This document shows, one piece after another, positions 985 through 19,708 of a stretch of DNA of 64,000 nucleotides (position 1 is its first letter; every line of letters starts with the position of its first letter). Both the position numbers and the translations under genes were made by a program. Where the stretch lies: the NCBI GenBank assembly GCA_963767735.1, contig CAVYES010000007.1:192001-256000 (forward strand), written 5' to 3'. The notes beneath the pieces are model-generated. The model had not been told where the DNA came from. It did not search any database and worked only from the letters and a program-made list of their open reading frames with translations. This DNA comes from Candidatus Bathyarchaeota archaeon. Lineage in GTDB: Archaea > Thermoproteota > Bathyarchaeia > Bathyarchaeales > Bathycorpusculaceae.

Positions 985-1437
985 TTATGGTTGGTCAATG
1001 GACAATTCTTTTACTCTTGTTTCAATGAATTCGGCAACCTTTTGTTCGCTAAACTCTTTTTCGTTTTTTTGTAGCTGCAACTGCTCTTTTACAATGTTTA
1101 GGAGGTTTTCGATATCTATGGGTTTGATCAGGTATGCGTCTGCATTCTTGTTTAAGGCTGATATAGCATTTTGCATCGAAGGGTAACCTGTCACCATTAT
1201 TTTGCGTGTCCTTGGAACCGTATCCTTAATGAGTTTTAGCAGTTCAACTCCTTCCATGTCAGGCAATCGAATATCTAACAGCGCAATGTTATAAGCTGAT
1301 TTCTGAGTTTTTTGAACAGCTTCTCTTCCGGTGGCTGCTGAATCGACAATGTATCCTTCGTCCTCAAGTATGGTCTTCATGGTGTTCCTTATGTTTTCGT
1401 CGTCATCGACAACGAGGATTTTGGCATGTTTATCCAA
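985..1437 (-). CDS. Response regulator (receiver domain plus short C-terminal helix)
   Basis: ILVVDDD, LLDIRLPD (phospho-Asp), VTG and KP motifs; GGAGGTGA SD lies inside the upstream kinase gene. Confidence 0.95.
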   Translation of the reverse strand: MDKHAKILVVDDDENIRNTMKTILEDEGYIVDSAATGREAVQKTQKSAYNIALLDIRLPDMEGVELLKLIKDTVPRTRKIMVTGYPSMQNAISALNKNADAYLIKPIDIENLLNIVKEQLQLQKNEKEFSEQKVAEFIETRVKELSIDQP

Positions 1438-4142: not shown

Positions 4143-4581
4143 CCCAAACCTCTAATTTTACCATTTTCCCATCATCTTCATAATGTAGTCTCATGAGCTC
4201 GACATATTGATTAAACGTTAAATCGGGAACAAGCCAGCTTGGACCGCGCCACTCGTAAAAGCAATCGATTTTTTCGTGAAGCTTCTTCATCATAAGTATC
4301 TCCAAATGTTTTGCGGCTACGCCGAAAATGCGTTCAAGTGCACCCGAAAAATCATCGATCCTGTAAGGAATATCTTGCTTTGGAATGATGAATTCTTGTT
4401 CCAAATGAAAGTAAATTAACGTTTTTACGTTTTCTCCTAAAGTCGAAAACGCGCCATCTATAGCCTCCAGTAGAACAGCTTCAAATTTTTTATGCCCAGG
4501 AGCTTTATTACTCAATTGTTTATCCCAACGGTGCCCTTTTTCATTACAGACAGTTATGAACCTATTTTTTTCTCGGTTCAC
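4108..4581 (-). CDS. DUF3227/NitrOD5-like small archaeal signalling-associated protein
   Basis: EAIDGAFSTLGE...IYFHLE..F.I....IP....DF..ALERIFG.AA..LE motif; overlaps the kinase start. Confidence 0.65.
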   Translation of the reverse strand: MNREKNRFITVCNEKGHRWDKQLSNKAPGHKKFEAVLLEAIDGAFSTLGENVKTLIYFHLEQEFIIPKQDIPYRIDDFSGALERIFGVAAKHLEILMMKKLHEKIDCFYEWRGPSWLVPDLTFNQYVELMRLHYEDDGKMVKLEVWVDAEEKQKQRV

Positions 4582-4861
4582 TAATCCTAAAACGAAGGAA
4601 GGGAAGTAAAGGGTTATGAATTTCTAATTATTACCACTAATCAGCTCTGAGCCCTTGACTTGAATACTTTAACTGTTGGATTCGGCCCACTACATTAAAG
4701 ATAAGAACTTGTTCAAACCTCAGATAACCAGCATTATTAATGAAGCAGTATTGAGTTGGTCTCCTTGATTCGCTTTTGGCCTGCGTTTTCCGTGAATGTT
4801 AAGGTTTTTATTATGGCTTGGCTTGTTTCATTTAGCTCCTCTAAAAAGCATATATCCACGT

Positions 4862-4937
4862 GGGGCCGTCGTCTAGCTTGGATTAGGATACATGCCTGGG
4901 GCGCATGCGATCCTGGGTTCAAATCCCAGCGGCCTCA
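4862..4937 (+). tRNA. tRNA-Pro (anticodon GGG), no intron, CCA not encoded
   Basis: Acceptor GGGGCCG/CGGCCTC, anticodon arm CATGC-CTGGGGC-GCATG, T-arm CTGGG-TTCAAAT-CCCAG; TATA-like TTTTTATTA upstream. Confidence 0.95.
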
Positions 4938-5151
4938 TTCAAGATTCTAAACCTAGCAACACAACCGCAGCAAATTTTAGGTTCATATCTTGCCGCAGAT
5001 AGATGCCTTGCTGCAAAGACTGCTGTTTTCGGTTGTCGTTCGATGGATGGATAACGACCGTCTTAAAGCGACTTTCGAGTTGGTTCTCAGAAAGGCGGCT
5101 TCTACGAAATATAACTTGCGCTTAGTGGAAATTGAACTTGAGGGTTCAATT

Positions 5152-5526
5152 TTATCGTTTTTTTCCTGCGGAAGAAGGCTGGATTGGGCTTGAAACTGGA
5201 AATCGGGTTAAAAACCGCTTGATCTCCTTAGAAGTTGTGAACCTTTTACATGGAAAACAGAGGCTAGTTTGAACTTTTCGCATGTTGAGAGAGCACGATT
5301 TTGACGTGATTTTGTAGGGTTTGAGTGGCTCCTGAAGTGGTGGTCGTTGTGGGAAGAAACCATACGTCGACGATTCATTTATGAGGTAAGGGCGGTTCGT
5401 TGCCGAACGGTTTCCGCCAGTTCTCTTGGTTTTCAGGCCGCTTTGGCATATTGTGAACAGGGACAGGTACGTTTTGGTTTCAGGGTACGGTTTGCACGCT
5501 CTACCGTGCTCGCGGCACCATAGCAT
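5152..5526 (-). CDS. Hypothetical basic, Cys-containing protein, possibly a degraded gene
   Basis: 124-aa ATG-started ORF between the tRNA and its partial copy; no family recognised. Confidence 0.3.
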   Translation of the reverse strand: MLWCREHGRACKPYPETKTYLSLFTICQSGLKTKRTGGNRSATNRPYLINESSTYGFFPQRPPLQEPLKPYKITSKSCSLNMRKVQTSLCFPCKRFTTSKEIKRFLTRFPVSSPIQPSSAGKKR

Positions 5527-5793
5527 CAGACTTATCGTAAGTTTTTTTATACGAAACTTAGGCAGCGAGCTTCTCTAAGTTGAGGCAATCTACAAAAGCG
5601 TCAATGAACCGTACCGGGTTTTGCTTGTCGACGTAATCATCAAGTATGTTTGGGAAGAGAACTGACTGATTTCTGTAATGGCCTGTTATGTGTTCGCTCA
5701 TGGCTTTTCAGCTCTTTCTGTTGCTCTAAAGCTAGTCTAGATTTAAGGTTAACGGAAAATAGCAAGCAAAGAAAGAGACTTTTCACTCAGTCT

Positions 5794-5822
5794 GATCTGG
5801 GTCTTAGACCCAGCGGGCCTCA
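5794..5822 (+). repeat. Degenerate copy of the tRNA-Pro 3' end (att-like remnant)
   Basis: GATCTGGGTCTTAGACCCAGCGGGCCTCA versus tRNA GATCCTGGGTTCAAATCCCAGCGGCCTCA. Confidence 0.55.
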
Positions 5823-6098
5823 CCACAAATTCACCAAATGACCTAAGAACCAGTTATCTGAAAGTACGTGCCTTGTATGGCAGCTTAATTTTTTGGATTA
5901 ATCTTCTAAAAAGCTAAAAATAAGGTCTTTGCAAGATTCTAGTTAATCAACCAATGCAGAATGATTTGTTTTTTTAAAATAAAAAAAGAGAATAAGTTTT
6001 ATGGGAGTCGTAAAATTAGGGAAGCATTTTGAGTATTTTGGGTTATTCGTTAGGATGATTGAAGCGAATGATGTTGAAGGATGGAGTCTGAGTTTGTG

Positions 6099-6197
6099 TT
6101 AAAGTTTTGTTTTGAGTTCCAACTTTATGCTGTACCCTATGAAGGCAAATGAACCGATTATTGTAGCTATTGAGGCTATATCAATTATTCCAAACAT
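6099..6197 (-). CDS. Unannotated 32-aa single-TM peptide (MFGIIDIASIATIIGSFAFIGYSIKLELKTKL)
   Basis: GGTGA SD, own TATA plus shared motif, ungapped homology to the peptide at 12459-12566. Confidence 0.75.
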   Translation of the reverse strand: MFGIIDIASIATIIGSFAFIGYSIKLELKTKL

Positions 6198-6240
6198 ATT
6201 TTCACCATTTTATTGTATACTTATGTACTTGCACAGCTAA

Positions 6241-6269
6241 ATATAAATACAGTTGTGATTTGTTCATAA
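6241..6269 (-). promoter_or_regulatory. Promoter with shared motif, site 1: TTATGAACAAATCACAA-N5-TTTATAT
   Basis: Motif 6253-6269, TATA 6241-6247; faces the 32-aa peptide. Confidence 0.75.
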
Positions 6270-6383
6270 TTATTCATAAACACTTGACAGCTGTCTAAAA
6301 TCCAACAGAAAATTTATATGCAATAACACCTTAATACTGTTAAGCTTAAACCTAAACAAGTAAAAAGAAAAAGAGGAAAAAAA

Positions 6384-6632
6384 TTGAAAGCCTATATACT
6401 CTTAAGCACTAAACCCGGCACGTCATTGGACGTCGTTAAAAAAATAAAAGAAAAAGTCACAGGGACCTGCATAGTATCTGCGGACGCAATCTTCGGCCGA
6501 TACGACGCAATAATAGTTCTAGAAGCCCCAGCACTTGAAGACATAAACCAAGTAGTTTACAAAATAATCGAAAAAGACCCCAGCGTGATCCGCACTGAAA
6601 CATCCATAGTTTTATCACCAATGCAACAATGA
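6384..6632 (+). CDS. Stand-alone Lrp/AsnC ligand-binding (RAM) domain protein
   Basis: KAYILL..KPG....V......ADAIFGRYDAI......RTETSIV; no HTH; T-tract after the stop. Confidence 0.85.
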   Translation: MKAYILLSTKPGTSLDVVKKIKEKVTGTCIVSADAIFGRYDAIIVLEAPALEDINQVVYKIIEKDPSVIRTETSIVLSPMQQ

Positions 6633-6736
6633 ACTCTTAGACAGAAACCAAAATTTCCCAAATCATTTTTTTTTTTTTAAAAATAAGATTTCAGGAAGAA
6701 AATAATACGGCTTATCCGAAATAAACTAATTCTATC

Positions 6737-7030
6737 TTAAATGGATGGAGATGTGGAGGGGGCGGTTTCTTCGGTGCATTTTGGTCCTTTGTGAGCTTTA
6801 AGTACAATGGAGCTTACGGTGCTTTTTACGCCTTTTATTTTCATGATCTTGTTCTTGAGGATATCTCGAAATTCTTCTATGTCGGCAGCTGAAACCAAAG
6901 TTACGATGTCAAATTCGCCTGTAACTTCGTATAATTCTTCAAGGTGTTCCAGTTGGGCAAGTGAGGTTAATACGGTATCCATTTCTGGAGATTCCACAAA
7001 TATATCGACGAATGCAAGGAGTCTTGGCAT
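6737..7030 (-). CDS. Stand-alone Lrp/AsnC ligand-binding (RAM) domain protein
   Basis: LYEVTGEFDIV...IMKIKGVKSTVSSIVL; no HTH; start placed at ATG of MPRLLAF by alignment to the 11591-11881 paralog. Confidence 0.85.
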   Translation of the reverse strand: MPRLLAFVDIFVESPEMDTVLTSLAQLEHLEELYEVTGEFDIVTLVSAADIEEFRDILKNKIMKIKGVKSTVSSIVLKAHKGPKCTEETAPSTSPSI

Positions 7031-7213
7031 ATGGGTCTTGCCATATTGAACATGAGTTTCCAATATTTATACTTTTTCTCGCATGCAGACAATTATTCCA
7101 TCCTTTACCTGACAAATGTGCGGCATCAAAGTTAAAAATTGGACATTTGAAAAAAAGAGCCATCGCTTGTGTTTTGGCATTCAGCAATCACGAGTTTACC
7201 AAGGGCTAAAACA

Positions 7214-7690
7214 TTAACTTGTGAAATTACCATAAACAGACGGATAATCTTTTATTAGCAACAGATTAAGCTGCAAAGGGTCCACATATGGACTGCCAAA
7301 AATCCAAAGCGTTCCCTGCTGATTCTGGTTCACCAGATTTGTTAACGAATCAACAGGAATTCCGGTTGCATTACTTATTCCAGGTATCTGCGCGTAAGCT
7401 TGCTGAAGTGTGATATCGGGGTCGACACCTGACGCTGATGGCGATACTGTCTCGTTCCTTGTCTGGAAGAACATAGGCGAAGTGAAGTTTTGAGCGATAA
7501 GAGCCGACCCTACGTTTTGCCCGTTGAGCTGGACTAATTCGCCGTTCGCTTGGTAGGGAAAGAAAACTTGGCCTATACCTGTGATTACTAATGGAAAAAG
7601 TATTCCGCAAATCAACAGCGAAACCAATGTCAACCCTATAATCGGTCTCAGGTTCTTCAGGACCCATTTTCGTTTTTGTTCAGTTGTCAT
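7214..7690 (-). CDS. kdpC: K+-transporting ATPase subunit C (short form)
   Basis: N-terminal TM, FPYQANG, GSALIAQNF, SASGVDPDIT, LNL motifs. Confidence 0.92.
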   Translation of the reverse strand: MTTEQKRKWVLKNLRPIIGLTLVSLLICGILFPLVITGIGQVFFPYQANGELVQLNGQNVGSALIAQNFTSPMFFQTRNETVSPSASGVDPDITLQQAYAQIPGISNATGIPVDSLTNLVNQNQQGTLWIFGSPYVDPLQLNLLLIKDYPSVYGNFTS

Positions 7691-7704
7691 ATTTTCTTTG
7701 CTTC

Positions 7705-9885
7705 CTAAATGTGAAGTACTCCACCAAGGAGCAGATCTATCAATTTAATTCCAACGAAGGGCACAATAACCCCGCCCACACCATAGATTAAGGTGTTCTT
7801 GAGGAAAAGAGCCATTGTGCTCGTGGGCTTGAAAGCGATTCCTCGCATGGCAAGCGGAATCAAAAGCGGAATGACGATAGCGTTGAATATGAGAGCCGAC
7901 ATGACAGCGCTTTGCAAGTTGTATAAATGTAAGATGTTTAGAGCGCTTAGCGATGGAATGGCTGTTGCCATGATAAAAGGCATGATTGCGAAGTACTTGG
8001 ACACATCGTTAGCTATGCTAAAAGCAGTAACCGCGCCTCGAGTCATAAGCAACTGTTTCCCAAGCATGACGACATCAATTATTTTTGCTGGATTCGATTC
8101 TAAGTCAACCATGTTCGCTGCCTCCTTAGCAGCTTCTGTGCCAGAGTTCATGGCGAGACCCACATCGGCAGCTGCAAGTGCTGGGGCATCATTACTTCCA
8201 TCGCCAATCATTGCCACAATTCTGCCTTCAGATTGCTCCCTCTTGGCGATGTTGTACTTGTCCTCGGGCTTTGCCTGCGCCACATATTCGTCCATTCCAA
8301 CCTCTGACGCAATACTTTTGGCAGTAAGCGGCTGGTCTCCAGTTATCATGACTGGGCGGATTCCCATGACTTTAAGAGCTGCAATTTTTTCTTTTATGCC
8401 TTCTTTCAGGACGTCTTTCAATCTGATTATTCCGATGATTTTGCGGTTTCTTGCGACGGCTATAGGTGTTTCGCCCTCCACAGATATTCCATCTACGATA
8501 AGGTCGTAGTTTGGAGGAACGGAATCTACAATTTTTTTGATCGATTCTGGAGCGCCTTTGTAGATTTCAATTTCAGCGTCAATTCTTGCTGCAACGCCCT
8601 CTTCAGGCACTATCGAGGATTTTCTTCTGATTCTCAGTCGGTCTCGTCCTGATTTGTCACCTTTCGGCAGCGTTAAGCCCATGTGAGTTATTTTCACTCC
8701 ACTAGTGCGGGTGCTGGCTGAGAACGGGTAAGTTTCTGAAAGCGCGAGAGAATTCAGTTCTTTCGGTAAGAAACCTTTCTCATATGCGAGCTTAAGTATG
8801 CTACGACCCTCTGGGGTATCATCATGCCAAGAAGAAAGGAAGGCTGCTTCACCTACTTCTTCTTCCGTAAACCCTTCCATTTCCACGAACTTTATTGCTT
8901 GCCTGTTTCCTACTGTAATGGTGCCTGTCTTGTCGAGCAGAACGACATCCGCATCGCCAGCTGTTTCTATCGCCTTGCCGGACTTTGCGATTATTTTGCT
9001 TTTGTACAGTCTGGACATTCCAGAAAGCCCGATTGCGGGAAGAAGAGCACCTATGGTTGTTGGGAGGAGGCAAACGTAAAGTGCTATTAGCACGGAGAGG
9101 TCAGCGCCTAAACCCAAAGCGACCGATATGCCTAGCAAAGTAAGTATTATAATGGTGAAGATAGCGGTTAATCCAATCAGCACGATGGTTACCGCAACTT
9201 CGTTAGGCGTCTTTGGTCTCTTAGAAGATTCAACCATCTTTATCATTTGATCAATGAAGGTCTCGCCAGGATTCGTCGTAACCTTCGCGGTCAAAGAATC
9301 GCTGACGAGTCGTGAGCCTCCAATAAGCGAGTCTCCAGGCGCCTTCCGAACCGAAGCGGATTCACCCGTAACAAGCGACTCGTCAACCATGGCGATTCCT
9401 TCCAGTATATCAGCGTCTAAAGGAACGACGTCGCCTTTTTCAATCAGGATAAGATCATCTTTTCTTAGTTCAGTCGATTTTACATCGACTATCTTCCTCG
9501 TCCATTCTTCCGTTACGATTTTTTTAGCCGGCACCTCAGTTTCTAATTTTCGTAAAGCACCGGCTGTGCTTTTTGCCTGTTGCTCAGCAAGAGCATCAGA
9601 GAGGGTGCTGAACCAAACGGTAATGAGGAGAATTGCGGCGACTGCAATATAGAAGCCTCGCAGGCCGACGCTGGCTACTGACCCGAAAGCCTGTGGAGCG
9701 ATGGCCATTGCTGCAACAATAAAGAACGTGATTTCAACTATTAGCATCACTACGTTTTTGAGCAGTGATTTAGGGCTTAAACGGATTAACGAATCAATCA
9801 GCACTTTTTTAGAGAGCTTCATTCCTTCATAGGAAGGTTCGCTCCTCTTTGCCGGTGCTAAAGTTTTCGTTTCATCAGAAGCCAT
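7705..9885 (-). CDS. kdpB: K+-transporting P-type ATPase subunit B
   Basis: TGES, CLLPTTIG, DKTGT, TGD, GDGSNDAPALAAADVG, SIANDVSKYF motifs. Confidence 0.97.
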   Translation of the reverse strand: MASDETKTLAPAKRSEPSYEGMKLSKKVLIDSLIRLSPKSLLKNVVMLIVEITFFIVAAMAIAPQAFGSVASVGLRGFYIAVAAILLITVWFSTLSDALAEQQAKSTAGALRKLETEVPAKKIVTEEWTRKIVDVKSTELRKDDLILIEKGDVVPLDADILEGIAMVDESLVTGESASVRKAPGDSLIGGSRLVSDSLTAKVTTNPGETFIDQMIKMVESSKRPKTPNEVAVTIVLIGLTAIFTIIILTLLGISVALGLGADLSVLIALYVCLLPTTIGALLPAIGLSGMSRLYKSKIIAKSGKAIETAGDADVVLLDKTGTITVGNRQAIKFVEMEGFTEEEVGEAAFLSSWHDDTPEGRSILKLAYEKGFLPKELNSLALSETYPFSASTRTSGVKITHMGLTLPKGDKSGRDRLRIRRKSSIVPEEGVAARIDAEIEIYKGAPESIKKIVDSVPPNYDLIVDGISVEGETPIAVARNRKIIGIIRLKDVLKEGIKEKIAALKVMGIRPVMITGDQPLTAKSIASEVGMDEYVAQAKPEDKYNIAKREQSEGRIVAMIGDGSNDAPALAAADVGLAMNSGTEAAKEAANMVDLESNPAKIIDVVMLGKQLLMTRGAVTAFSIANDVSKYFAIMPFIMATAIPSLSALNILHLYNLQSAVMSALIFNAIVIPLLIPLAMRGIAFKPTSTMALFLKNTLIYGVGGVIVPFVGIKLIDLLLGGVLHI

Positions 9886-11533
9886 TCTTTAACCCTCCGA
9901 AGAATGATCCAAGTGGTCCAATCGCCAAGAACGGGAAGAACGATAACACTACTAGTATGATGATGCTGACAACTAGAACTATAGTAAATAGTAATGTGTC
10001 GGTTTTGAGCCCTGTGCTGGTGCCAGTTCGTTTTCGCCCGATCATGGAGCCTGACAGTGCAAGCAAGATTAGAATTGGACCATAGCGTCCTATTAAAATG
10101 ACTATGGCAGTAGCTATGTTGAAGAACGGTGTATTTCCTTGGGCGCCTAGGAAATCTGAACCGTTGTTCGCTGAGGCTGACGTGAATTCCCATAGGATTT
10201 GAGTGAAACCTATAGAGCTTCCGTTGACGCCAATGGCTGCCGCTGCGCCCGAAGCATACGCTGTTACTGTGGGTATTAGTATGGAAATGGGATGAAGTAG
10301 GAAAGCCACCATGACAAGCAATACGTCATGACCAGTGATCTTGACGCTCAGGTATTCAGGAGTTCTTCCAGACATTAATCCAACGACGAAGACGGTAATT
10401 AAGACGAACATTACCATGTACATCATTCCAACTCCTTTCCCACCTGGAATCGACTGAATGAACATCCCCAGGAAACCAGAAGTTATCCCCAGAGGATGAA
10501 TCCCGGAAAGCGAAGCGTTAACGGAGCCAGTTGTGCACATAGTCGTAATCACAGTCCATAAAGTGGAAGAGAAACCGCCGAACCGAGTTTCAATTCCTGG
10601 ACCAATTGCGGGAATAGATGGAATAAACGCTAAAGCTAGAACGCCTCCGCCAAGAATCAAAGTGCCCCCTAAAAGGGGTATGGATTCGCTTTTTTTGCCT
10701 ATCATTTCACCGAAAACAAAGAGCAAAGCTAGCGGAAGCAGCAGCATCAGAATTATCATGATGACGTCAGTGTATTGGGAAGGGTTCATGAAGGGGTAGG
10801 CAGCGTTTGCACCGTAAAAGCCGCCGCCGTTTGTGCCCAATTGCATTATGCCGTCCAGGGAAGCAACAGGTCCAGCTAGAATTGTTTGTGTAGCCCCCTC
10901 TATCGTCTTTAGTGTGGTGTAGCCGGTGAGGGTTTGGGGTACACCCAAAGCAAGAAGTACGATTGAAGCTACAAAGGCGAGGGGCAAGAAAATTCTTGTA
11001 ATGGATCTGGTGAAGTCAACGTAAAAGTTACCCATGTCTTTTGAGCTGGGGATTAATCCTCGGATAAATGCGATCCCTACGCATATTCCTGTGATTGGAG
11101 AGGCAAATTGAAGCCACTGGAGAACGCCTATTTGGCTAAGATAAGAAAAAGCTGCTTCGCCGTTATAATGTTGCAGATCAGTATTTGTCGTGAAAGAGAC
11201 TGCCTGCATGAAAGCAAGGTCTGGATGTATGTCGGGGAAATGCATGGGGTTAAGGGGCAAGCTGCCTTGGAAGACCATGATTAGAAAAGCGACAACAATC
11301 ATGACTACGTTTACCATCAGGGCTGCAAGAAAGTACTGCTTCCACCCCATCGTCTGCTCTGTGTCTACGCCAATGATTTTGTAAATGAAGTTTTCAATTG
11401 GGTTGAATATTTTATCTAAACGGCTTGGTTTTCGATTATAAACTGCGACGAGATATGGCGCTATAAGTTTCGCTAAAACTAATGCTACACCAATAATTAG
11501 AACGACTGCCAGCGCCTGAACTGCATTTGTCAA
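9875..11533 (-). CDS. kdpA: K+-transporting ATPase subunit A
   Basis: Filter motifs TNTDLQHY, LGTNGGG, TTGSVN, SANNGS; GRTPEYL. An SD-preceded GTG at 11567 is one base out of frame and may be the true start if there is a 1-nt error. Confidence 0.96.
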   Translation of the reverse strand: MTNAVQALAVVLIIGVALVLAKLIAPYLVAVYNRKPSRLDKIFNPIENFIYKIIGVDTEQTMGWKQYFLAALMVNVVMIVVAFLIMVFQGSLPLNPMHFPDIHPDLAFMQAVSFTTNTDLQHYNGEAAFSYLSQIGVLQWLQFASPITGICVGIAFIRGLIPSSKDMGNFYVDFTRSITRIFLPLAFVASIVLLALGVPQTLTGYTTLKTIEGATQTILAGPVASLDGIMQLGTNGGGFYGANAAYPFMNPSQYTDVIMIILMLLLPLALLFVFGEMIGKKSESIPLLGGTLILGGGVLALAFIPSIPAIGPGIETRFGGFSSTLWTVITTMCTTGSVNASLSGIHPLGITSGFLGMFIQSIPGGKGVGMMYMVMFVLITVFVVGLMSGRTPEYLSVKITGHDVLLVMVAFLLHPISILIPTVTAYASGAAAAIGVNGSSIGFTQILWEFTSASANNGSDFLGAQGNTPFFNIATAIVILIGRYGPILILLALSGSMIGRKRTGTSTGLKTDTLLFTIVLVVSIIILVVLSFFPFLAIGPLGSFFGGLKNGF

Positions 11534-11590
11534 TTAATCCGAAACTCCAGATAACATTCGTGCTCACTATGGCTCCTTTCCGCTCCTGTT

Positions 11591-11881
11591 CTATTTTGCT
11601 ACCGAAGTATTAATTTTTGCCGCTAAACATTTGGGTCCCTTATGAGGCTGCAAAATTATCGTTACTATAGTGCTCTTTATGCCGTTAATCTTCAGTATTT
11701 TCTTATGCAGGACATCCCTGAACTCTTCAAGGCAAGACGCAGAAACTAAAGATACAATGTCGTATTCTCCGGCTACATCGTAGACTTCTTCGATATTTTT
11801 TAGTTCAGCGAGGGCCGTCAGCACATAATTTTTTTGGGACGGCTCAACGAATATATTAACAGACGCTAACAACCTGTTCAT
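11591..11881 (-). CDS. Stand-alone Lrp/AsnC ligand-binding (RAM) domain protein
   Basis: VYDVAGEYDIV...KILKINGIKSTIVTIIL; close paralog of 6737-7030, sharing the HKGPKC tail. Confidence 0.85.
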   Translation of the reverse strand: MNRLLASVNIFVEPSQKNYVLTALAELKNIEEVYDVAGEYDIVSLVSASCLEEFRDVLHKKILKINGIKSTIVTIILQPHKGPKCLAAKINTSVAK

Positions 11882-11967
11882 AACAAGACTGCCCTCTTAT
11901 CTAAAAGAATGATCTCTACTATCGCTGAGCAAGTTCTTGGCTGGAACATGGTCGTAAAACTCTGCAA
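11878..11967 (-). CDS. Possible 29-aa leader ORF (MQSFTTMFQPRTCSAIVEIILLDKRAVLL)
   Basis: AAGGAG SD before TTG; its stop overlaps the next start as ATGA. Confidence 0.35.
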   Translation of the reverse strand: MQSFTTMFQPRTCSAIVEIILLDKRAVLL

Positions 11968-12008
11968 TTTTTCTTCTCCTTAACTTTCATACTCATAACA
12001 TCTTTTCC

Positions 12009-12037
12009 TAATAAAGCTATTTGTGACTTGTACATAA
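12009..12037 (-). promoter_or_regulatory. Promoter with shared motif, site 2: TTATGTACAAGTCACAA-N5-TTTATTA (RAM-kdpABC operon)
   Basis: Motif 12021-12037, TATA 12009-12015. Confidence 0.75.
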
Positions 12038-12377
12038 TTATTTGGTAAAGCTGAACTAATTTACACCAAAATGTCTAATAATTGAAAACATGAACGCATC
12101 ATAAACGTAAAGTTATGAAAACATGTTGAAACGATAGGTCCTCCAAACCACAAAGTTCCTACGAAATAGAAACGTAGCTGGCCTTAAAACCAGTCAAATA
12201 AATTGATTTTTTTACTAATTTGCTCTTATCAAACAACTTTATGGCTACATGTAAAGATCGATATGCCTCTCCAAGAACGAAAGGCAACAACCATTTGTCG
12301 AAACAAACAGTAATTACCCAGCCAAACGTCTAACTTCAGTTATCACAATTGTACAGCTTTTTTATTTTTCTTAAAAG

Positions 12378-12407
12378 TTATGAACACTTCACAACCACAT
12401 TTATATA
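12378..12407 (+). promoter_or_regulatory. Promoter with shared motif, site 3: TTATGAACACTTCACAA-N5-TTTATATA
   Basis: Motif 12378-12394, TATA 12400-12407; faces the 35-aa peptide. Confidence 0.75.
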
Positions 12408-12458
12408 GGATGAAGCACAACTAAAAATCGTTCAATAAAACTGAAATTTGGTGAAAAA

Positions 12459-12566
12459 ATGTTGGGATTATTGGATATATTCTGGACATGCGTAATATTT
12501 GGGTCAATAGTCACAATAGGCTACCAGCTCCGTTCAGAAATAAAAAATGGCAAACTACCATCATAA
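12459..12566 (+). CDS. Unannotated 35-aa single-TM peptide (MLGLLDIFWTCVIFGSIVTIGYQLRSEIKNGKLPS)
   Basis: GGTGA SD, own promoter, homologous to 6099-6197. Confidence 0.75.
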   Translation: MLGLLDIFWTCVIFGSIVTIGYQLRSEIKNGKLPS

Positions 12567-12887
12567 GTTAATTTCTTGTTCACGCGCAAACATTTCGATT
12601 TTAATAAATATTAGCCAAACTTGGCTACAAAGCAATCATAAAAGCTTTCTAATAAAAGTCGTTTTATTGTCGAAATCTTATATGAAGAACGGATTGGGCA
12701 AGAAAAACCTGGAGAATCCTAGAGCCGTTACCGAGTCTTCCTAAAGAAAATCGATTTGGGCATTTGGAACTATGTTTTTCTCCGCCCATATTTGAATTTT
12801 TCTTTTGGTCAATAAAACAGTCTAATCATAGTCTTTTATCCATAAATTTATCGTTTTTATGGAAATACTTGCAGTTATTCATAATTA

Positions 12888-12916
12888 TTATGAACAAATC
12901 TTAATTAGGTTTATAT
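12888..12916 (+). promoter_or_regulatory. Promoter with shared motif, site 4: TTATGAACAAATCTTAA-N5-TTTATAT (APC permease)
   Basis: Motif 12888-12904, TATA 12910-12916. Confidence 0.75.
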
Positions 12917-12959
12917 TTCGCTAGACCTGATTTATTGACTAATAATTTGGTGTTACTAG

Positions 12960-13097
12960 ATGAAAAAGAGAATGGAATCTCCAAATGTAAAAGAGTCAAG
13001 CAGAAAGCACAAAGCACTAATCGTTAAAAAAGGCAAAAAACTATTTTCCGCTATTATCTGCTTGTCTCTCAGAGGAGGGAAAACATATATCTTCTGA
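12960..13097 (+). CDS. Possible 45-aa Lys-rich leader ORF upstream of the APC permease
   Basis: ATG after GGTG; MKKRMESPNVKESSRKHKALIVKKGKKLFSAIICLSLRGGKTYIF; overlaps the permease SD. Confidence 0.35.
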   Translation: MKKRMESPNVKESSRKHKALIVKKGKKLFSAIICLSLRGGKTYIF

Positions 13098-13128
13098 CGC
13101 AACTGATGCAAAGACTCAAAAAACTCAA

Positions 13129-14688
13129 TTGAAAAAAACCCTCGGCCTCGGCGGCGTAACAATAAACGCCATGGCATTAATAGCCCCAGGGGCTTTCTTG
13201 TGGCTTACTTTTCAGATAAACGCAGCCCAGACCTCGCCGTCTGGCGCTTCAACAGCCAACGACATATTTTTTGGCCTTACAATAGCGTTAATTTTGGCGT
13301 TCCTAACTGCCGCTTCTTATTCGTGGCTAGCCCAACGTTACCCCGATGCTGGTCCAGGCAGTTCGTATTACTTTGCTCAAAGAGCCTTACTAGACAACGG
13401 AGCCAGCAACACTTCAGCCAGAAACGCAAAGTTCGGTATCGGCTGGATTTCTCACCTCTACTATTGGGTCTACCCAGGGGTTATGGTTGCAGCGATGTCC
13501 CTCTTGCTAACATGGATTTTATCAGTACTTGGCTTCAGCATTTCACCCTTAGGAGAAATCGCTATTGCCTGCGCATTTGCAGTGGTTACAGGCGCTATAG
13601 CTTACCGCGGAATTCAAGGATCAACAAAAACAAACCTTCTCCTCAACATAGTTCAAATCGGAATGCTGGTCATAATCACCGGAATGGCCTTGGCATTCCG
13701 TTTTACTAACCCTCAACACGTATCCTTTACATTCACTAGCTTAGGCGGAATAGTCACACCTCACGATATCAGCTTCGTGTTATTTCAAGCGACCATCGCC
13801 ATCTTAGTACTAGTAGGATTCGAATCCGCAACAGCATACACCGGAGAAGCCAAAGATCCAAAGGTTGTTCCAAAGGCAATAATTTTATCTTTGATCATTC
13901 AAGGCGCCTTCGCGTACCTATTTGAATACTTTGGAGCCGAGGCATGGATGAACAACAGCTATACCATAACACAAAACGGCAAGACATTTACGGGATTTGG
14001 CGCCGCAGCAGTTTCGACCGCTCCCATCGGGGATATGGTTCACAACCTGGGAAACGTATTCCTTGGAGGCAACGGATTCACGCTAGAGCTAATAGTGGCT
14101 GCAATTGTGGCAGCTGCAATATTAGGCACTACCCTCGCATGCATGAACACCGGCGTTAGAGTAACTTACGCAATCAGCCGAGACACCGAAGTGCCTTATC
14201 ACCTCAGTAAGCTAAACCCAAAATACTCCACTCCAGCGATTGGCATCTGGGTAATGACAGCCGTTGCAGCCGCTATTGGATCCTTCGGAGTACTAACAAT
14301 CACAAACCTAACATCAATTACATTGCTATCAAACTTTGGCACCTTCCTGCTGTACGGACTAACAAACCTGATAGCGTTAATCGCGTTCACTAAAGAACGC
14401 AGTAACATACTAAAACGCAGAGTAGTTCCAATCGCAGGCTTCGCTGCCAACGCTGTCATGATGGCAACAATCGTGTACCTCAGCTTTGCAGGCGGAGGGG
14501 CTTCAGCATCAGAAGGAATCTTCGCTATAGCCGGCACCGCAATATGGTTGGCAATAGGTTTAATCTATTTCCGCGTCAACTCAAAATCAAAGTCCTCCGG
14601 TTTGTTCCCATTCCCAGGGAAAGACGAGGACGAAATCAAGACTGCAAGCAGTAAATCCAGAGCCTTCAAGTTCTGGAAAAAAAATTAG
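13129..14688 (+). CDS. APC-superfamily permease
   Basis: About 12 TM segments, GFESATAYTGEAKDP, RVTYAISRD, TP motif; start may be an in-frame ATA at 13087 after GGAGG. Confidence 0.9.
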   Translation: MKKTLGLGGVTINAMALIAPGAFLWLTFQINAAQTSPSGASTANDIFFGLTIALILAFLTAASYSWLAQRYPDAGPGSSYYFAQRALLDNGASNTSARNAKFGIGWISHLYYWVYPGVMVAAMSLLLTWILSVLGFSISPLGEIAIACAFAVVTGAIAYRGIQGSTKTNLLLNIVQIGMLVIITGMALAFRFTNPQHVSFTFTSLGGIVTPHDISFVLFQATIAILVLVGFESATAYTGEAKDPKVVPKAIILSLIIQGAFAYLFEYFGAEAWMNNSYTITQNGKTFTGFGAAAVSTAPIGDMVHNLGNVFLGGNGFTLELIVAAIVAAAILGTTLACMNTGVRVTYAISRDTEVPYHLSKLNPKYSTPAIGIWVMTAVAAAIGSFGVLTITNLTSITLLSNFGTFLLYGLTNLIALIAFTKERSNILKRRVVPIAGFAANAVMMATIVYLSFAGGGASASEGIFAIAGTAIWLAIGLIYFRVNSKSKSSGLFPFPGKDEDEIKTASSKSRAFKFWKKN

Positions 14689-14980
14689 CTCCCCTTTTTC
14701 TTTTTTAAGAAAACTATGGAAAATTTAATAAACAGTGTATATTTTAGTTCAAATTCGATTTTTTGCTTTGTAATTTGCTTTCGAACTTGACAATTCAATA
14801 ACGAACATTCTTTTACTTCACATTTAATGCCTCAACCTGCAAATGATTCAAATTCTTCAATCTATATTTCAAAATAACTGAGCAACGGCAACCCTAACCC
14901 CTCAGCCTTTCTAAACATTCTGGGTTTACTGGTGAACTCAGTACGCCTAGTGGACTTTTACATAATTTTTGATACTTTTC

Positions 14981-15045
14981 CAACCGTTTCAAACCATTTC
15001 TAACCATTTTCAACCAATTCCACCCGTTATAAACCGTTTTAAACC
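14981..15045. repeat. Degenerate 10-bp tandem repeat, about 6.5 units (nAACCRTTTY)
   Basis: caaccgtttc aaaccatttc taaccatttt caaccaattc cacccgttat aaaccgtttt aaacc. Confidence 0.7.
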
Positions 15046-15370
15046 TCAACCTGCAAAGATTTTAAGCCCTGAACCAAAAAAGCAACCCAAAAAAAGCTTT
15101 TTTAAAAAAGCACGAAAAAATTGTTTTTACCTATCTTCTACTCAGAACAGTGCCAAGAAAAGAAAAAAACTTTACCGCCACTAATATTTATCTGAAAAGG
15201 GATCGGCTAAATGTACACGATAGGTGAAAGAACGCGGGTAAATTAGAAAGAACTGGGTTTGTTGAAATGGAGCAAAACTAACAATCAAACAACAAGAAAT
15301 AGCTTAGAAAGAACTTAAGCAATTGAAACCACCCAAGTTTGAAAGCGTAAGGTGTACTTTATTTTACTTT

Positions 15371-15481
15371 TCATCTACTTTTCTTCATAACTCTTTTTTG
15401 AAAGATACTGTGCGGTTGACAATGAGAGTCCATTATAATCTGTTCTTCAATGTTCCGTTTAGTTTTTGAAGCTTTTTTCAA
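15371..15481 (-). CDS. Possible 36-aa basic peptide (MKKASKTKRNIEEQIIMDSHCQPHSIFQKRVMKKSR)
   Basis: TTG after GGTG, directly downstream of promoter site 5. Confidence 0.4.
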   Translation of the reverse strand: MKKASKTKRNIEEQIIMDSHCQPHSIFQKRVMKKSR

Positions 15482-15525
15482 TGATGACACCAATTTCGAT
15501 TTTACAAAGTGGTATGTTCAGGGAA

Positions 15526-15554
15526 ATATAAACGTAGTTAATACTTGTTCATAA
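15526..15554 (-). promoter_or_regulatory. Promoter with shared motif, site 5: TTATGAACAAGTATTAA-N5-TTTATAT
   Basis: Motif 15538-15554, TATA 15526-15532. Confidence 0.7.
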
Positions 15555-15655
15555 CTTTTATGAAAAGCTGAATTATTTTGTAATAATAACTTGTTATGAT
15601 GAACAACCAAAAAAGGTCTGGAGACTTGAACCGCATGATCCAAACAATAGATTGG

Positions 15656-16570
15656 CTAAATGGTTCCTATGATTAACCCTATTGTAAAGCTGAGCAGTGG
15701 CACAATCACCCAGCTTAAAGCTATCAGCAGAAACGGCTTAACCGAGACGAACTTGGATTTGTAAGATATTCCTGTTCCAAAAACTGCCGACGCCAAAGCT
15801 TGAGTGTTGGAAAGTGGAATATTTAAAATCGTAGCCGCCTCAACGAGAACCGTTGAAACCACAAGCGTCGCCGTAGCATTTGGGTACCGCATGAGAAAAA
15901 GCTCTTGAGCAACCCTACGAATCTCGCCAGCACTCAAATAGAATGTTCCGATAAATATTGCAGCAATTGCCGCTATGACGTTGGTTATATTGAAACCGCC
16001 CGTGGCAACTATCAACCCGAGGGTATTTGCTCCTAGAACATATGAGGTTGAAAACGCTAAAACAATTATCAGGATTTTGTAGGTTTGTAGTCTTCGCCAA
16101 ATGTTTTCGGTCCAGTTACGATTTATGATTCTGATGAGGTAAAACGCAAAAACTATAGCGATCAAAGGTGCCAAAACCCACATGGCCGCCACCTCAGCAA
16201 TGTAAGCGCTGTTTGTAAGTGCACCAGTTGCAATGGATAAGCCTGCGAGCAAACCGACAAGCGCCATGCTCATAGATGCTGGCACTCTAATTAAGTCGGC
16301 AACAACAAAAATTAATATGGCCACCAGCAAAGCTTCTGCCCGAAACTGCAAAGTCACATTTGGCAGCAGCACATGTATTGTTTTTATCATGCTGACGCCT
16401 TGGGCAACGAGTCCCAGTGAAAATCCTGCAGCGCCCAGCAGCATTCCAAGTCGTTTACTTATGATTCTTGAGCCTACGGCGGGGCCAACACAAGCGGACA
16501 GATTGTTGCCGGCAACTAACATTACCGTGATGAAAGTTAATATCAAAATAGCGATGGAAAGCCAAAGCAT
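15656..16570 (-). CDS. PiT-family inorganic phosphate/anion transporter
   Basis: GNN and GANT signature-like motifs, PLSNTQ, multi-TM; paired with DUF47. Confidence 0.85.
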   Translation of the reverse strand: MLWLSIAILILTFITVMLVAGNNLSACVGPAVGSRIISKRLGMLLGAAGFSLGLVAQGVSMIKTIHVLLPNVTLQFRAEALLVAILIFVVADLIRVPASMSMALVGLLAGLSIATGALTNSAYIAEVAAMWVLAPLIAIVFAFYLIRIINRNWTENIWRRLQTYKILIIVLAFSTSYVLGANTLGLIVATGGFNITNVIAAIAAIFIGTFYLSAGEIRRVAQELFLMRYPNATATLVVSTVLVEAATILNIPLSNTQALASAVFGTGISYKSKFVSVKPFLLIALSWVIVPLLSFTIGLIIGTI

Positions 16571-16576
16571 GCCGCG

Positions 16577-17257
16577 TCACTTAGTAATAGAGGTAACTAC
16601 GGATACGATGAGATCTGAGAGGTCCTCGCAGGAATCAAGTACGTCGTCGCATTTGTGCAAAAGCTCGGAATAATGGAAGAACTGCAAGTAATGCAAGTTC
16701 GGCGTCATGTTGTATAGCCTGTCAAATCCCCCGTTTTTAAAGTCATCGCCCTGTTCTTCCAAGGCTTCAATTTCTTTGCGCAGCTCCAAAATCTCTGAAA
16801 CGTTGGATGAGGAGAGCGCCTGAGTGAGCTTTGAGAGGGATGTTGTCGCGAGTGTAAGGAGGTTCATGTATACAGAGTCCCAACCGGGACGTTTCATTTC
16901 GAAACCCGCAGAGTAAACCTTCGCCATTCGATCTAATTCTCTGCTGAGGTAATAATACAAGTCAACTATGTCGTCAGCAACTTGGACGGATCTAAGCAGG
17001 TCATCTATTATGTTGGGGCTGATGGCGCCGCTTGTAATGTCTTCGCTTATTTTAAAGGCTATATCATCAGATTTTTTCTCAAGCAACTGCATGGCATTCA
17101 TGGTTTCAGTTACCTGTTTTTCGTTGACATCTACATTAAACATGCTTGACACGAGAGTGTTAGCTTCTGAAGCGATAGCTATAATTTGAGTAAGCTCAAC
17201 GAAAATATTTTTTTCTCCAACAACCAAGACACCCCTGAGGCTTTTCAGCATAAACAT
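16577..17257 (-). CDS. DUF47 / PhoU-like Pit accessory protein
   Basis: LEKKSDDI and LEEQGDD repeats, helical; upstream of pit. Confidence 0.85.
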   Translation of the reverse strand: MFMLKSLRGVLVVGEKNIFVELTQIIAIASEANTLVSSMFNVDVNEKQVTETMNAMQLLEKKSDDIAFKISEDITSGAISPNIIDDLLRSVQVADDIVDLYYYLSRELDRMAKVYSAGFEMKRPGWDSVYMNLLTLATTSLSKLTQALSSSNVSEILELRKEIEALEEQGDDFKNGGFDRLYNMTPNLHYLQFFHYSELLHKCDDVLDSCEDLSDLIVSVVTSITK

Positions 17258-17407
17258 CCTCCCAAATTTCAAGTTCAGTAATACTCGGTCAAGCAATATT
17301 AAGTATTTAAAATTTTCAAGTTTGCTTATAGCGACAAGATTAAAGATTGATTAAAGATGAAATGCTAAAAGCAAGGGCTTTGAGAGATTCTGGAAGTTCG
17401 CGTTCAA

Positions 17408-17890
17408 TCAAATAACTTTGCTGTATTCTTTTACGGCGTTCAAAGCAATCAGCGTGGTGGTTCTCTTTATGAAGCGTTCAGTCAGCAGTTTTTTTAAGTA
17501 ACCATTAAGGCTTGCATTGTCTCGGAACTTGGCGAAGACAATTGCATCATACTCTCCGGTTATATCGTAAACGGATAAGACATTGCTTTCTTTTGCAATT
17601 TCATTTTCGACTTCGATAATATGTCCGCCTTCAACCTGAATCATGATAATAGCAGTCAAGGTATAACCCATCTTCGCGGCGTCAACAACGGGCACGTATC
17701 CAAGAATTACGCCTTCACGCTCTAGACTATCAAGGCGATTGTGCAGAACATTTGGGGTTATCCCAACCCTGTAAGCTAGCTTACGCAAACTTACTCGTGA
17801 ATCTTCTTCCAATGCCCGTATGATTTGCAGATCAATGTTGTCCAATTTTATCGTTGGGGTTTCACTCAGTTTTAAGCCCAAAATTCTCAA
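17408..17890 (-). CDS. Full-length Lrp/AsnC transcriptional regulator
   Basis: LDNIDLQIIRALEEDSR HTH, LEREGVILGY, YDITGEYD RAM domain. Confidence 0.93.
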   Translation of the reverse strand: MRILGLKLSETPTIKLDNIDLQIIRALEEDSRVSLRKLAYRVGITPNVLHNRLDSLEREGVILGYVPVVDAAKMGYTLTAIIMIQVEGGHIIEVENEIAKESNVLSVYDITGEYDAIVFAKFRDNASLNGYLKKLLTERFIKRTTTLIALNAVKEYSKVI

Positions 17891-18181
17891 CCCCTAATGT
17901 TTTACTTGACGTTTGTTTAGTAAAACAAGAGATATATAAACATAACCGCATAAAAATTGGAACATTGTAAACAATAGTAAGCCTCGAAACCGCTTGAATA
18001 GACAATCGATACATGGGCAATTTACGAATGTACATTGATTACGAAATCGAGAGGTTTTTGACAAATACATAGCAACCCTAGACGAATCCTTCATTAACCA
18101 AGATTGCATAATGATGTAACGTTTATTTGGATGTACCAATAATTTAAATCCTAACGCTAAGTAGCTGATATATTCATAAAA

Positions 18182-19708
18182 TTGAAAAATAACCTGTTTG
18201 AAATGGATGATTTGCAGATGGCGAATAATGATGTGGACGTACTCTTAACTGCTGATAGAACACTAATGAGCAATTACCACGGTAACGAATTTCTGGGCTT
18301 CGGTACGTGTGCTCCGTCCAACTTCATCCCTGACGTCTTATACAGTTACATGTTTTTTCCGCCGATAGGGACAAGCAAGGGGTTGCCGACCGCCGCGCCT
18401 TATGGATTAAGAAAAATCGAAGCTCAACTGCAGAAAGAAGGCTTTAACGTTTTAACAATTAGTCCACAGCATCTTCGAAAATACCTTAAAACCGCCAAAG
18501 TTATTGGCATTCACACTATGGACCCGTTTGGTTTCGGTCCGGCATCAACTACATTGGCATCTGTTTTTCATAAAGAGCCATTTTTAGCAAGGCACTTCCA
18601 TGCATTAGTAACCAGCCCCATCATCAGAGAAGCTAAAAGAAATGGAGTAAAGGTAATAGTGGGCGGTCCGGGTGCATGGCAGTTCCGCTACAGACCACAA
18701 CTCGTTGAAAAAAAAGTGATAGATTGCGTCGTAGAGGGAGAGGCAGAAAACGTTATAGGAAAAATTTTCAAAGCAGCCTTAAGCGGCGAGGTGCTCCAGT
18801 CTCATTATGAAGTTTTAGCTAAAGACGCACCTCGGCTGGAAGATATACCCGACATCACGCAGCCTTCCGTTAATGGTTTAATTGAGCTTGGAAGAGGCTG
18901 CTGCCGAGGATGTGAATTCTGCAATGTTACGCTCAGACCACTGCGTTGGTACCCTTACGACAAAATCATTCGGGAATTGGCTGTCAACGTTGAAGTTGGC
19001 AAACATCGTGTTATCTGTCTACATGCTGAAGACGTAATGCTATATGGTTCGCAAAATGCAGTTCCAAATGACGAAAAACTGCTGAAACTTCATGAGTTGG
19101 TCATGAGCAAGGTTCACGCGATTAGTTGGAGTCACTGCTCATTAGCAGCCGTAGCCTCAAAACCGAAGCTTGTCTCTAAACTCTCAGAAATTATACTTCA
19201 GAAGCAAGCATGGTGGGGAGCAGAAATCGGTGTTGAAACCGGTTCAGCTGAACTCGCCAAAAAAATCATGCCAGCAAAGGCACTTCCATTTAAGCCTGAA
19301 GAATGGCCTCAAGTTGCACGACAAGGGTTTGGAATAATGCACGATCACAAACTAATCCCTGCAGCAACGCTCATTGTTGGACTTCCTGAAGAAACTGAAG
19401 GCGATATTATTAAGACGATGGAACTTGTAGACGATGTTAAAGATTGCCGAAGCCTTATTGTACCTTTATTCTTTGTTCCGCTGGGTCGGCTGAAAAACAA
19501 GGATTGGTTCAGAGAAACAGAAGTGAATAAACTACATGAGCAACTAATGTTCCTATGCGCAGAGCACAGCATTCGCTGGGTTGACAATCTACTGGACATG
19601 TCATTCATGGATAAGGGGTATAGGGTTGCTTTGAAAGAATTTTACAAGGTCTTCGCGGGATTAGCAAAAAGGCAATTAAGACGCTCTGAAATTACAGAGT
19701 TACAGTGA
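18182..19708 (+). CDS. Radical SAM protein with B12-binding-like domain
   Basis: GRGCCRGCEFC (CX3CX2C), APYGLRKIEA, IVGGPGAWQ, GVETGS. Confidence 0.9.
   Translation: MKNNLFEMDDLQMANNDVDVLLTADRTLMSNYHGNEFLGFGTCAPSNFIPDVLYSYMFFPPIGTSKGLPTAAPYGLRKIEAQLQKEGFNVLTISPQHLRKYLKTAKVIGIHTMDPFGFGPASTTLASVFHKEPFLARHFHALVTSPIIREAKRNGVKVIVGGPGAWQFRYRPQLVEKKVIDCVVEGEAENVIGKIFKAALSGEVLQSHYEVLAKDAPRLEDIPDITQPSVNGLIELGRGCCRGCEFCNVTLRPLRWYPYDKIIRELAVNVEVGKHRVICLHAEDVMLYGSQNAVPNDEKLLKLHELVMSKVHAISWSHCSLAAVASKPKLVSKLSEIILQKQAWWGAEIGVETGSAELAKKIMPAKALPFKPEEWPQVARQGFGIMHDHKLIPAATLIVGLPEETEGDIIKTMELVDDVKDCRSLIVPLFFVPLGRLKNKDWFRETEVNKLHEQLMFLCAEHSIRWVDNLLDMSFMDKGYRVALKEFYKVFAGLAKRQLRRSEITELQ

Follow-up and report, generated by a model that had tools for sequence, protein, structure and literature searches.

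Ptr2 of Methanocaldococcus jannaschii and LysM and Ss-LrpB of Sulfolobus are archaeal activators of the Lrp type. In the sections of a review cited here (PMC2995911), their dimer site is described as lying, in a highly constrained position, a few base pairs before the transcription factor B (TFB) recognition element (BRE), with extra sites further upstream, and they are said to activate via contacts with the TATA-binding protein (TBP). The subject of the present analysis is a promoter element of comparable layout in a stretch of 64,000 nucleotides of Candidatus Bathyarchaeota archaeon (assembly GCA_963767735.1, contig CAVYES010000007.1, positions 192,001 to 256,000; hereafter the window), where a 17-bp motif stands just upstream of five TATA boxes. 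An original prediction, made from the window alone, had assigned these promoters to a K+-limitation regulon independent of KdpDE and controlled by an Lrp-type activator. The position of the motif, immediately upstream of BRE/TATA, agrees with what those sections say of Ptr2, LysM and Ss-LrpB; the K+ label is not supported by the targets in this and related genomes. The likeness to the three activators, as far as they are described there, extends to a constrained (semi)palindromic site, further sites on the same helical face and an Lrp/AsnC protein as candidate factor. The differences lie in the sequence, here TTATGA-N5-TCAYAA, in the targets, here Kdp, Amt ammonium transporters and glutamine synthetase, in that binding and activation are here predicted, and in the half-site pitch of 10 bp, against centre-to-centre distances of two or three helical turns in the cited sections.

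Other described systems share parts of this layout. In Haloferax mediterranei, an Lrp/AsnC protein encoded beside glutamine synthetase binds the nasABC promoter, and a Halobacterium Lrp is related to glutamine synthetase expression, according to the portion of PMC8143581 cited here. The haloarchaeal Lrp family (NCBIfam NF041396) is the best named-family match (8.9e-36) of the candidate factor of the window, the full-length Lrp/AsnC protein Lrp160 (17408..17890, minus strand); with 123 bits against a cut-off of 190, Lrp160 was rejected as its equivalog, and the organisms are unrelated. The feast/famine regulatory proteins of Pyrococcus combine a full-length Lrp, FL11, with a protein made of the ligand-binding RAM domain only, DM1, just as full-length and stand-alone RAM proteins occur side by side here. 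RAM domains bind amino acids and DM1 also 2-oxoglutarate, and the FL11 site is a 13-bp palindrome rather than one of 17 bp, in the parts of PMC2995911 that treat them; here, moreover, RAM-only genes lie inside target operons (RAM96-kdpABC-RAM108). The bacterial KdpDE-kdpFABC system has the same genes kdpA, kdpB and kdpC, whereas the present promoters are of the archaeal TATA type, in a genome with one TBP gene and three TFB genes. The absence of KdpD, asserted earlier for the window, extends to the whole 95%-complete genome, in which PF02702 has 0 matches, the positive controls being matched in 6 of 14 genomes. The NrpR regulon of methanogens overlaps in gene content, its targets there including glnA and amt. 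NrpR itself belongs to a different protein family, acts as a repressor and recognises a different operator, and the present genome holds only a sub-threshold match to it (PF01995, 21.1 bits at best against a 25-bit cut-off; the NrpR operator was not searched for). No PII protein was found in this genome.

Direct reading and a pattern search of the window recover the predicted motif, TTATG(A/T)ACA-N3-(C/A)(A/T)(C/T)AA, at all five places, each time with a spacer of exactly 5 nt to a TATA box, which is TTTATTA at the kdp site (12021) and TTTATAT at the other four. These five matches compare with 0.01 expected from 100 dinucleotide shuffles, a circular figure in that the pattern was drawn from the same sites. 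The motif contains a (semi)palindrome, TTATGA-ACAAA-TCAYAA, with an A/T-rich centre, perfect (TCATAA) at two sites of the genome. Element 1 (6241..6279, minus strand) consists of an upstream box TTATGAA (6273-6279), a core TTATGAACAAATCACAA (6253-6269) and the TATA box TTTATAT (6241-6247); it scores 29 bits, heads the peptide gene pep32 and belongs to a set of four paralogues in the genome. Element 2 (12009..12047, minus strand; 23.8 bits) faces the kdp operon and has the core TTATGTACAAGTCACAA (12021-12037), the TATA box TTTATTA (12009-12015) and a poor box, TACCAAA (12041-12047). On the plus strand, element 3 (12368..12406; box TTCTTAA 12368-12374, core 12378-12394, TATA 12400-12406) drives the peptide gene pep35 and has orthologous sites in two congeneric genomes (G018, G002), and element 4 (12878..12916; box TTCATAA 12878-12884, core 12888-12904, TATA 12910-12916) drives pep45 and an APC-family permease gene. 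Element 5 (15526..15564, minus strand; box TTCATAA 15558-15564, core 15538-15554, TATA 15526-15532) stands before a short leader open reading frame (ORF). The additional half-site that the original prediction saw in several copies, TTCATAA-N3-TTATGAA, is exact in elements 4 and 5 (12878-12894; 15548-15564, minus strand) and carries one mismatch in element 3; in element 1 its place is taken by a direct repeat of TTATGAA, and in the kdp promoter it is absent.

The interpretation favoured here, probable though far from secure, is that of a small regulon marked by this element and switched by one Lrp-type subfamily, in an activating and nitrogen-linked manner. The 17-bp motif would then be the promoter-proximal core of an upstream control element of about 45 bp, bound by members of one Lrp/AsnC subfamily that includes Lrp160 and a second protein, Lrp163, encoded on contig C6. 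Seated beside BRE/TATA, the factor would help TBP and TFB to load and so activate, as for Ptr2, LysM and Ss-LrpB, and may itself be modulated by stand-alone RAM proteins whose genes lie within or next to the target operons. The regulon would serve monovalent cation uptake and nitrogen assimilation, with Amt as the recurrent target across genera and with glnA-asnB, APC permeases, a CitMHS transporter, a P-type ATPase and many one-helix peptides as further members. The kdpABC genes, which stand here without KdpDE, would have been drawn into it in one lineage.

The site is specific within the genome. In G000, as the present genome is called below (3.04 Mb in 10 contigs, 43% G+C, window included), the exact pattern has 11 matches, every one with a TATA-like heptamer at +5, which is TTTATAT at eight. 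A weight matrix that covers the 17 bp alone and does not demand TATA finds 12 sites of at least 22.5 bits, and each has TATA at +5; TATA is lacking at the next best match (19.6 bits), and three shuffled genomes yield 0-2 matches of at least 20 bits. A thirteenth, weaker site (16.7 bits, TTTAAAT at +5) stands back to back with another site. The gap to TATA is thus 5 nt at all 13 sites, which are distributed over the window (5) and three parts of contig C6, at 558-570 kb (6), 127.7 kb and 424.5 kb. Ordinary promoters, represented by a crude set of 121 single TTTAWAT sequences upstream of ORFs of at least 150 amino acids (aa), taken from 1993 crude upstream regions, carry the motif in register in one case only. 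Because the genome has 13 sites and ordinary promoters practically lack the motif, it is not a general extension of the BRE. The ordinary promoters show a weak preference for A at -3/-4, too weak to judge whether the motif promoters have a poor BRE. Nor is the recurrence of the motif merely a matter of duplication, because in blastn comparisons only the pep32 type (four copies) and the APC type (two copies) are paralogous promoters, and the likeness between the other classes is confined to ~35-55 nt around the motif.

The conserved stretch is longer than the motif. Among 61 unique sites, collected in a search that left the positions concerned free, motif position 12 is T in 100% and C/T/A is conserved in the spacer, while the upstream box appears as T-10 (0.92), T-9 (0.95), C-8 (0.69), A-5 (0.97) and A-4 (0.89), with further conserved positions out to about -28. 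Judged from these alignments, the element is ~45-50 bp long and built of an upstream box, TTATGAAC and ATCAYAA, that is, of three 7-bp half-sites (TTCATAA / TTATGAA / ATCAYAA) with a 10-bp pitch, ending 5 nt before TATA.

The composite of motif and TATA occurs in 18 of the 24 congeneric genomes other than G000. With G000 counted, 19 of 151 family genomes have it, spread over 8 of 70 genera; the 16 genomes examined that belong to other families of the order have none, and a reversed control pattern gave 0 matches in every genome of this survey. Relatives contribute more than 80 further sites. The fetched loci of the genus hold 71 sites in 19 genomes, and other genera have 23 sites in 15 genomes. 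A relaxed search of five genomes that have the Lrp and lack the motif gave one plausible variant site (G077) and otherwise doubtful ones; in G194 the reversed control had four matches against three for the pattern. Conservation at orthologous kdp loci, which the original prediction had named as a check, holds at eight of nine examinable loci of the genus and at two loci in genus g26; a tenth locus of the genus (G009) is cut by a contig end. In the eight (G000, G018, G013, G003, G022, G002, G012, G019) the site stands ahead of RAM96-kdpABC. The 5-nt gap is nearly universal in relatives, the exceptions being two kdp promoters, G012 with 4 nt and G019 with a 10-bp duplication. The G019 promoter (locus L035, ~7769-7810) contains a tandem duplication, AATCACAATC, inside the motif, a natural insertion of one helical turn. 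Its last half-site is still 5 nt from TATA, and the middle half-site has moved by one turn.

Among the alternatives, an operator for repression holds up best, unlikely as it remains: a bound protein, of the Lrp or another family, would cover the BRE and block TFB and TBP until a signal releases it. With only 5 nt between motif and TATA, the place expected for a BRE is taken up by the conserved C/T/A of the spacer and the final bases of the motif. The TATA boxes are near-consensus in a genome where a single TTTAWAT occurs in only 121 of the 1993 crude upstream regions, and such boxes would also suit strong default promoters held down by a repressor, which counts against activation. On the other hand, all sites lie upstream of TATA and none overlaps it or the expected start; the spacing is invariant and the G019 duplication keeps helical phase, neither of which plain occlusion would need; and Lrp-type sites in such a position are described as activating in the cited sections of PMC2995911. 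Because the 5-nt spacing is rigid and the duplication preserves phase, contacts with the basal machinery would fit better than simple occlusion, and activation by the bound factor is preferred here to repression.

What the element controls is read from the genes behind it. In the window these are pep32; RAM96-kdpA-kdpB-kdpC-RAM108; a 35-aa peptide; a 45-aa peptide with the APC permease; and the lysine-rich leader ORF of ~36 aa. On contig C6 they are two further copies of pep32, a third that is frameshifted and precedes a type-II P-type ATPase of 926 aa, a second peptide-APC unit, a type-I glutamine synthetase followed by two asparagine-synthase genes (glnA-asnB), a 78-aa membrane protein followed by the full-length Lrp163, an 86-aa ORF and a 47-aa peptide. 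The genus falls into two groups. In the first (G000, G018, G013, G003, G019, G022, G012, G002) the element precedes APC permeases, RAM-kdp, pep32 and glnA/asnB; in the second (G005, G007, G008, G011, G014, G015) it precedes an Amt transporter with a signal peptide, and also a CitMHS transporter followed by a 100-aa protein and then by Amt, TrkH or MscS. Eight genomes of four other genera (g85, g18, g21, g61) carry it before Amt, which with the genus makes 14 genomes. One such locus (L091, genome G127, 431-5823) reads Lrp, a 179-aa ribbon-helix-helix (RHH, CopG-type) protein, motif, KaiC-like ATPase, Amt, PII, Amt; a KaiC-like gene also heads the ammonium-transporter operon in two further genera (L085, L092). 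The promoter type of element 5 heads a leader ORF and an APC permease in G013, G003, G022, G012, G002 and G019 and in the g26 genomes G184 and G200, and what lies downstream is RAM and kdpABC (G013, G003, G002, G184, G200), glnA (G019) or asnB (G022).

On such targets the original prediction of a dedicated K+-limitation regulon, in which Lrp160 and the RAM proteins would sense K+ shortage and activate kdp, the permease and the peptides, looks distinctly improbable. It draws support from the conservation of the motif at kdpABC in the genus, from Lrp160-type genes beside the APC-RAM-kdp operon in two genera, from the RAM genes that flank kdpABC, from TrkH and MscS genes after motif-driven CitMHS genes (G008 and G007), and from the failure to find KdpD in the genome. 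The distribution speaks otherwise: KdpA was found in 9 of the 24 congeneric genomes, the motif in 18, and with 10 of 150 family genomes KdpA is rarer than the motif in the family as well. The same element stands at glnA-asnB, at the P-type ATPase, at an Lrp gene and, as the target that recurs across genera, at the Amt transporters, in one case in the Amt-PII-Amt operon. The RAM-domain ligands known from the cited sections of PMC2995911, furthermore, are amino acids and 2-oxoglutarate, not K+. Because of the Amt, PII and glutamine synthetase content, the RAM ligands and the haloarchaeal Lrp encoded beside glutamine synthetase, nitrogen status appears the likeliest signal, possibly through ligands of the glutamine or 2-oxoglutarate type; nitrogen status, or a combined cation and nitrogen status, is at any rate more likely than K+. 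From the gene content, the label of a K+ regulon would better give way to that of a regulon for cation and nitrogen acquisition that has recruited kdp.

The Lrp-family candidate is supported by gene linkage. Lrp160 and Lrp163 each have an N-terminal AsnC-type helix-turn-helix and a C-terminal RAM domain. RAM domains are matched 35 times in the genome, for the most part in stand-alone proteins (77-115 aa) and about a dozen times in full-length Lrps; within the latter, Lrp160, Lrp163 and a ubiquitous paralogue of C8 type form a subfamily with 40-48% pairwise identity, against at most 33% identity to the three other full-length Lrps of G000 that were compared. The closest solved relatives of Lrp160 are 8q90 (AsnC-family), a PDB entry for which no relevant paper was found, FL11 (PH1519; second, 7.4e-23) and a 150-aa protein of Sulfolobus tokodaii. 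A gene of the subfamily ends 110-146 nt before the motif of the Amt promoter in six of six congeneric loci and lies at most 1.5 kb upstream in seven of eight motif-Amt loci of other genera (13 of 14 genomes overall). Genes of Lrp160 type are found 0.1-2.9 kb from a promoter of the element 5 type or a motif site in G003, G013, G018, G019 and G000, a homologue 57% identical to Lrp160 stands upstream of the motif-APC-RAM-kdp operon in genus g26, and Lrp163 is itself encoded behind a motif promoter.

Presence and absence point the same way. Among the 145 family genomes outside the genus, 16 of the 17 that have the motif, and 18 of the 128 that lack it, encode an Lrp at orthologue level (E <= 1e-49 to the g18 protein; Fisher p = 4e-11, uncorrected for relatedness); the seventeenth motif-positive genome has a 95-aa Lrp fragment at a contig start. 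By linkage and co-occurrence with the motif, an Lrp-family factor is thus the best candidate, as had been predicted, with Lrp160 and its paralogues alike as candidate binders. Directly upstream of the Lrp160 gene (window 17891-17960), two copies of TTATG (TTTTATGCGGTTATG) immediately adjoin a TTTATATAT box; this may be an autoregulatory site. In G000 the gene is parted from element 5 by a DUF47 (PhoU-like) gene and a PiT (PHO4) transporter gene (15656-17296, minus strand), an insertion also present in G018, G013 and G019; in G003 the Lrp gene abuts the element.

Several observations weigh against this assignment and against the regulon as drawn. The E <= 1e-49 threshold was picked after viewing a bimodal score list, and the 18 motif-negative genomes do carry an Lrp orthologue. 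The recognition helices of motif-linked Lrps differ while the motif does not: they read S[AV]GTA[FY]N[HR][VI]K in other genera, SGVMASARIK beside Amt in this genus and TPNVLHNRLD in Lrp160. In an Lrp tree with 2 of 12 inner branches supported, the motif-linked proteins form no supported clade and the C8-type paralogue falls among them, and five congeneric genomes with one to three sites (G001, G004, G010, G021, G023) have only that paralogue. As to targets, no site lies within 6 kb at the kdp locus of G010, whose KdpA is the most divergent, the motif is missing within 1.5 kb at six kdp loci of the genera g83, g60 and g53, and the two Amt genes of the present genome also lack it.

Such points leave some room for a factor of another family, with the Lrp genes merely co-located or co-regulated, although this too is rather unlikely. 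The candidates would be the RHH protein, an uncharacterised winged-helix protein, or orf157 with its neighbouring PAS histidine kinase. The variable recognition helices and the five motif-bearing genomes without the specialised Lrp would fit such a factor, as would the RHH gene between Lrp and motif in L091 and the orf157/PAS-kinase pair, which lies downstream of pep32 in three genomes (here, G018 and G013). The RHH gene, however, is absent from the six congeneric Lrp-motif-Amt loci, where the gap is only 110-146 nt, orf157 has no family match, and the Lrp orthogroup is the sole candidate profiled for co-occurrence. That no dedicated regulator exists, the element being either a promoter cassette multiplied by duplication or an extended promoter element that one of the three TFB paralogues recognises, is very improbable, for although some promoters are plain duplicates and three TFB genes are available, the conserved stretch reaches ~50 bp upstream of TATA, far past the BRE, the element is carried by non-homologous genes in different genera with diverged flanks, and it co-occurs with one Lrp orthogroup.

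With an activating Lrp-type factor as the preferred reading, the genes behind the elements in the window can be set out. The kdp operon (7214..11533, minus strand) holds kdpA (9875-11533; 8.7e-175), kdpB (7705-9885; E1-E2 ATPase/HAD) and kdpC (7214-7690; 2.7e-38) side by side, as in the KdpFABC operon. Its first long gene, RAM96 (11591-11881, minus strand; PF01037, 1.7e-12), encodes a stand-alone RAM protein, and relatives, too, have a RAM gene next to kdpA in their kdp loci. A second one, RAM108 (6737..7063, minus strand; PF01037, C7:198797-199009(-), 1.9e-16), directly follows kdpC, so that RAM-only genes stand on both sides of kdpABC; in G003, too, a RAM gene comes after kdpC. An 80-aa ORF on the plus strand (6807-7049) has no family and was discarded as a shadow of RAM108. 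A third RAM gene, RAM82 (6384..6632, plus strand; PF01037, 7.6e-8), is divergent from the pep32 promoter, and this pairing is duplicated on contig C6 and kept in relatives. The genes kdpA, kdpB and kdpC, the APC permease, the full-length Lrp and the RAM-only proteins are as first described. A more speculative and rather doubtful thought is that in this lineage, where neither KdpD nor PII was found and NrpR is matched below threshold only, RAM96, RAM108 and RAM82 are the actual signal receivers, whether in mixed Lrp oligomers through which a single operator integrates K+ and nitrogen status or by acting directly on KdpABC or Amt as PII does on Amt, with the one-helix peptides as subunits or regulators of the transporters.

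The smallest of these genes is pep32 (6099..6197, minus strand), for a 32-aa single-helix membrane peptide (MFGIID...) without a Pfam match. Its ATG, with a GGTGA ribosome-binding site before it, is 72 nt from the start of the motif, its length is constant, and seven intact 32-aa copies across genomes differ by 152/133/281 substitutions at the three codon positions. Since length and ATG position are fixed, GGTGA is present and third-position changes dominate, pep32 behaves, as far as such comparisons tell, as a real gene. The copy before the 926-aa P-type ATPase (C6 565000-565111; L003 ~12000-12111, minus strand) is frameshifted and its promoter element is intact. The other small products are pep35 (12459-12566, plus strand), a 35-aa membrane peptide, and pep45 (12960-13097, plus strand) of 45 aa. 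No Pfam match was found for pep32, pep35, pep45 or orf78 in a library that includes KdpF, very short peptides being hard to detect. A small ORF heads almost every motif-driven unit: 29 aa before RAM96, 45 aa before APC, 78 aa before Lrp (L003 5526-5762, plus strand) and 70 aa before the P-type ATPase (L003 11388-11600, minus strand). The putative one before RAM96 (11878-11967, minus strand) has a TTG start, overlaps RAM96 in an ATGA stop/start and is not hydrophobic.

The APC-family permease gene (13129-14688, plus strand) follows pep45, and the whole unit from element 4 onwards is 90% identical to the second copy on contig C6. Its substrate could not be assigned, no solved relative being found at E <= 0.001 and the NCBIfam matches lying far below their cut-offs. 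The leader ORF behind element 5 (15371..15493, minus strand; '..QPHSIFQKR..') has its start codon at 15481 in an alignment of eight genomes. In relatives the beginning of an APC permease gene overlaps with it; G000 and G018 have lost this permease, and tblastn of a relative's permease gave nothing significant in 14600-15600. Behind the leader ORF, here (14689-15370) as in G018, lie ~680 nt of apparently non-coding DNA. Rfam has no match at E <= 0.1 in window positions 5000-18500, and thus no known riboswitch or leader RNA there. Downstream of pep32, orf157 overlaps the start of the 917-aa PAS histidine kinase gene (window 1389-4581, minus strand); it matched no Pfam or NCBIfam family, and a language model gave a weak lead to an archaeal (thaumarchaeal) two-component output domain (score 0.86). 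Outside the window, a perfect palindrome, TGCAACA-N3-TGTTGCA (C4 86263-86279), lies beside a TATA-like sequence upstream of the first of the two Amt genes of G000; it is unique in the genome and was rejected as the mark of a second regulon.

Full-text searches of the literature, which did not cover supplements, found no description of the present element and no transcription factor-operator pair or regulon in Bathyarchaeia. The element would thus be a new instance of a known archaeal type of control element, in a class for which no described regulon was found. Bathyarchaeia are abundant, uncultured archaea of soil, peat and sediment, and the element gives them a sequence-defined regulon, with 13 promoters here and more than 80 sites in relatives, and pairs it with a named candidate regulator. 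Synthetic DNA and recombinant protein would suffice to test the two in vitro, with no need for a culture. For kdpABC the element suggests a way of control that does without KdpDE. K+ uptake, ammonium uptake and the synthesis of glutamine and asparagine share one promoter signal in these organisms, and the conserved small membrane peptides and RAM-only proteins are unexplored parts of the response.

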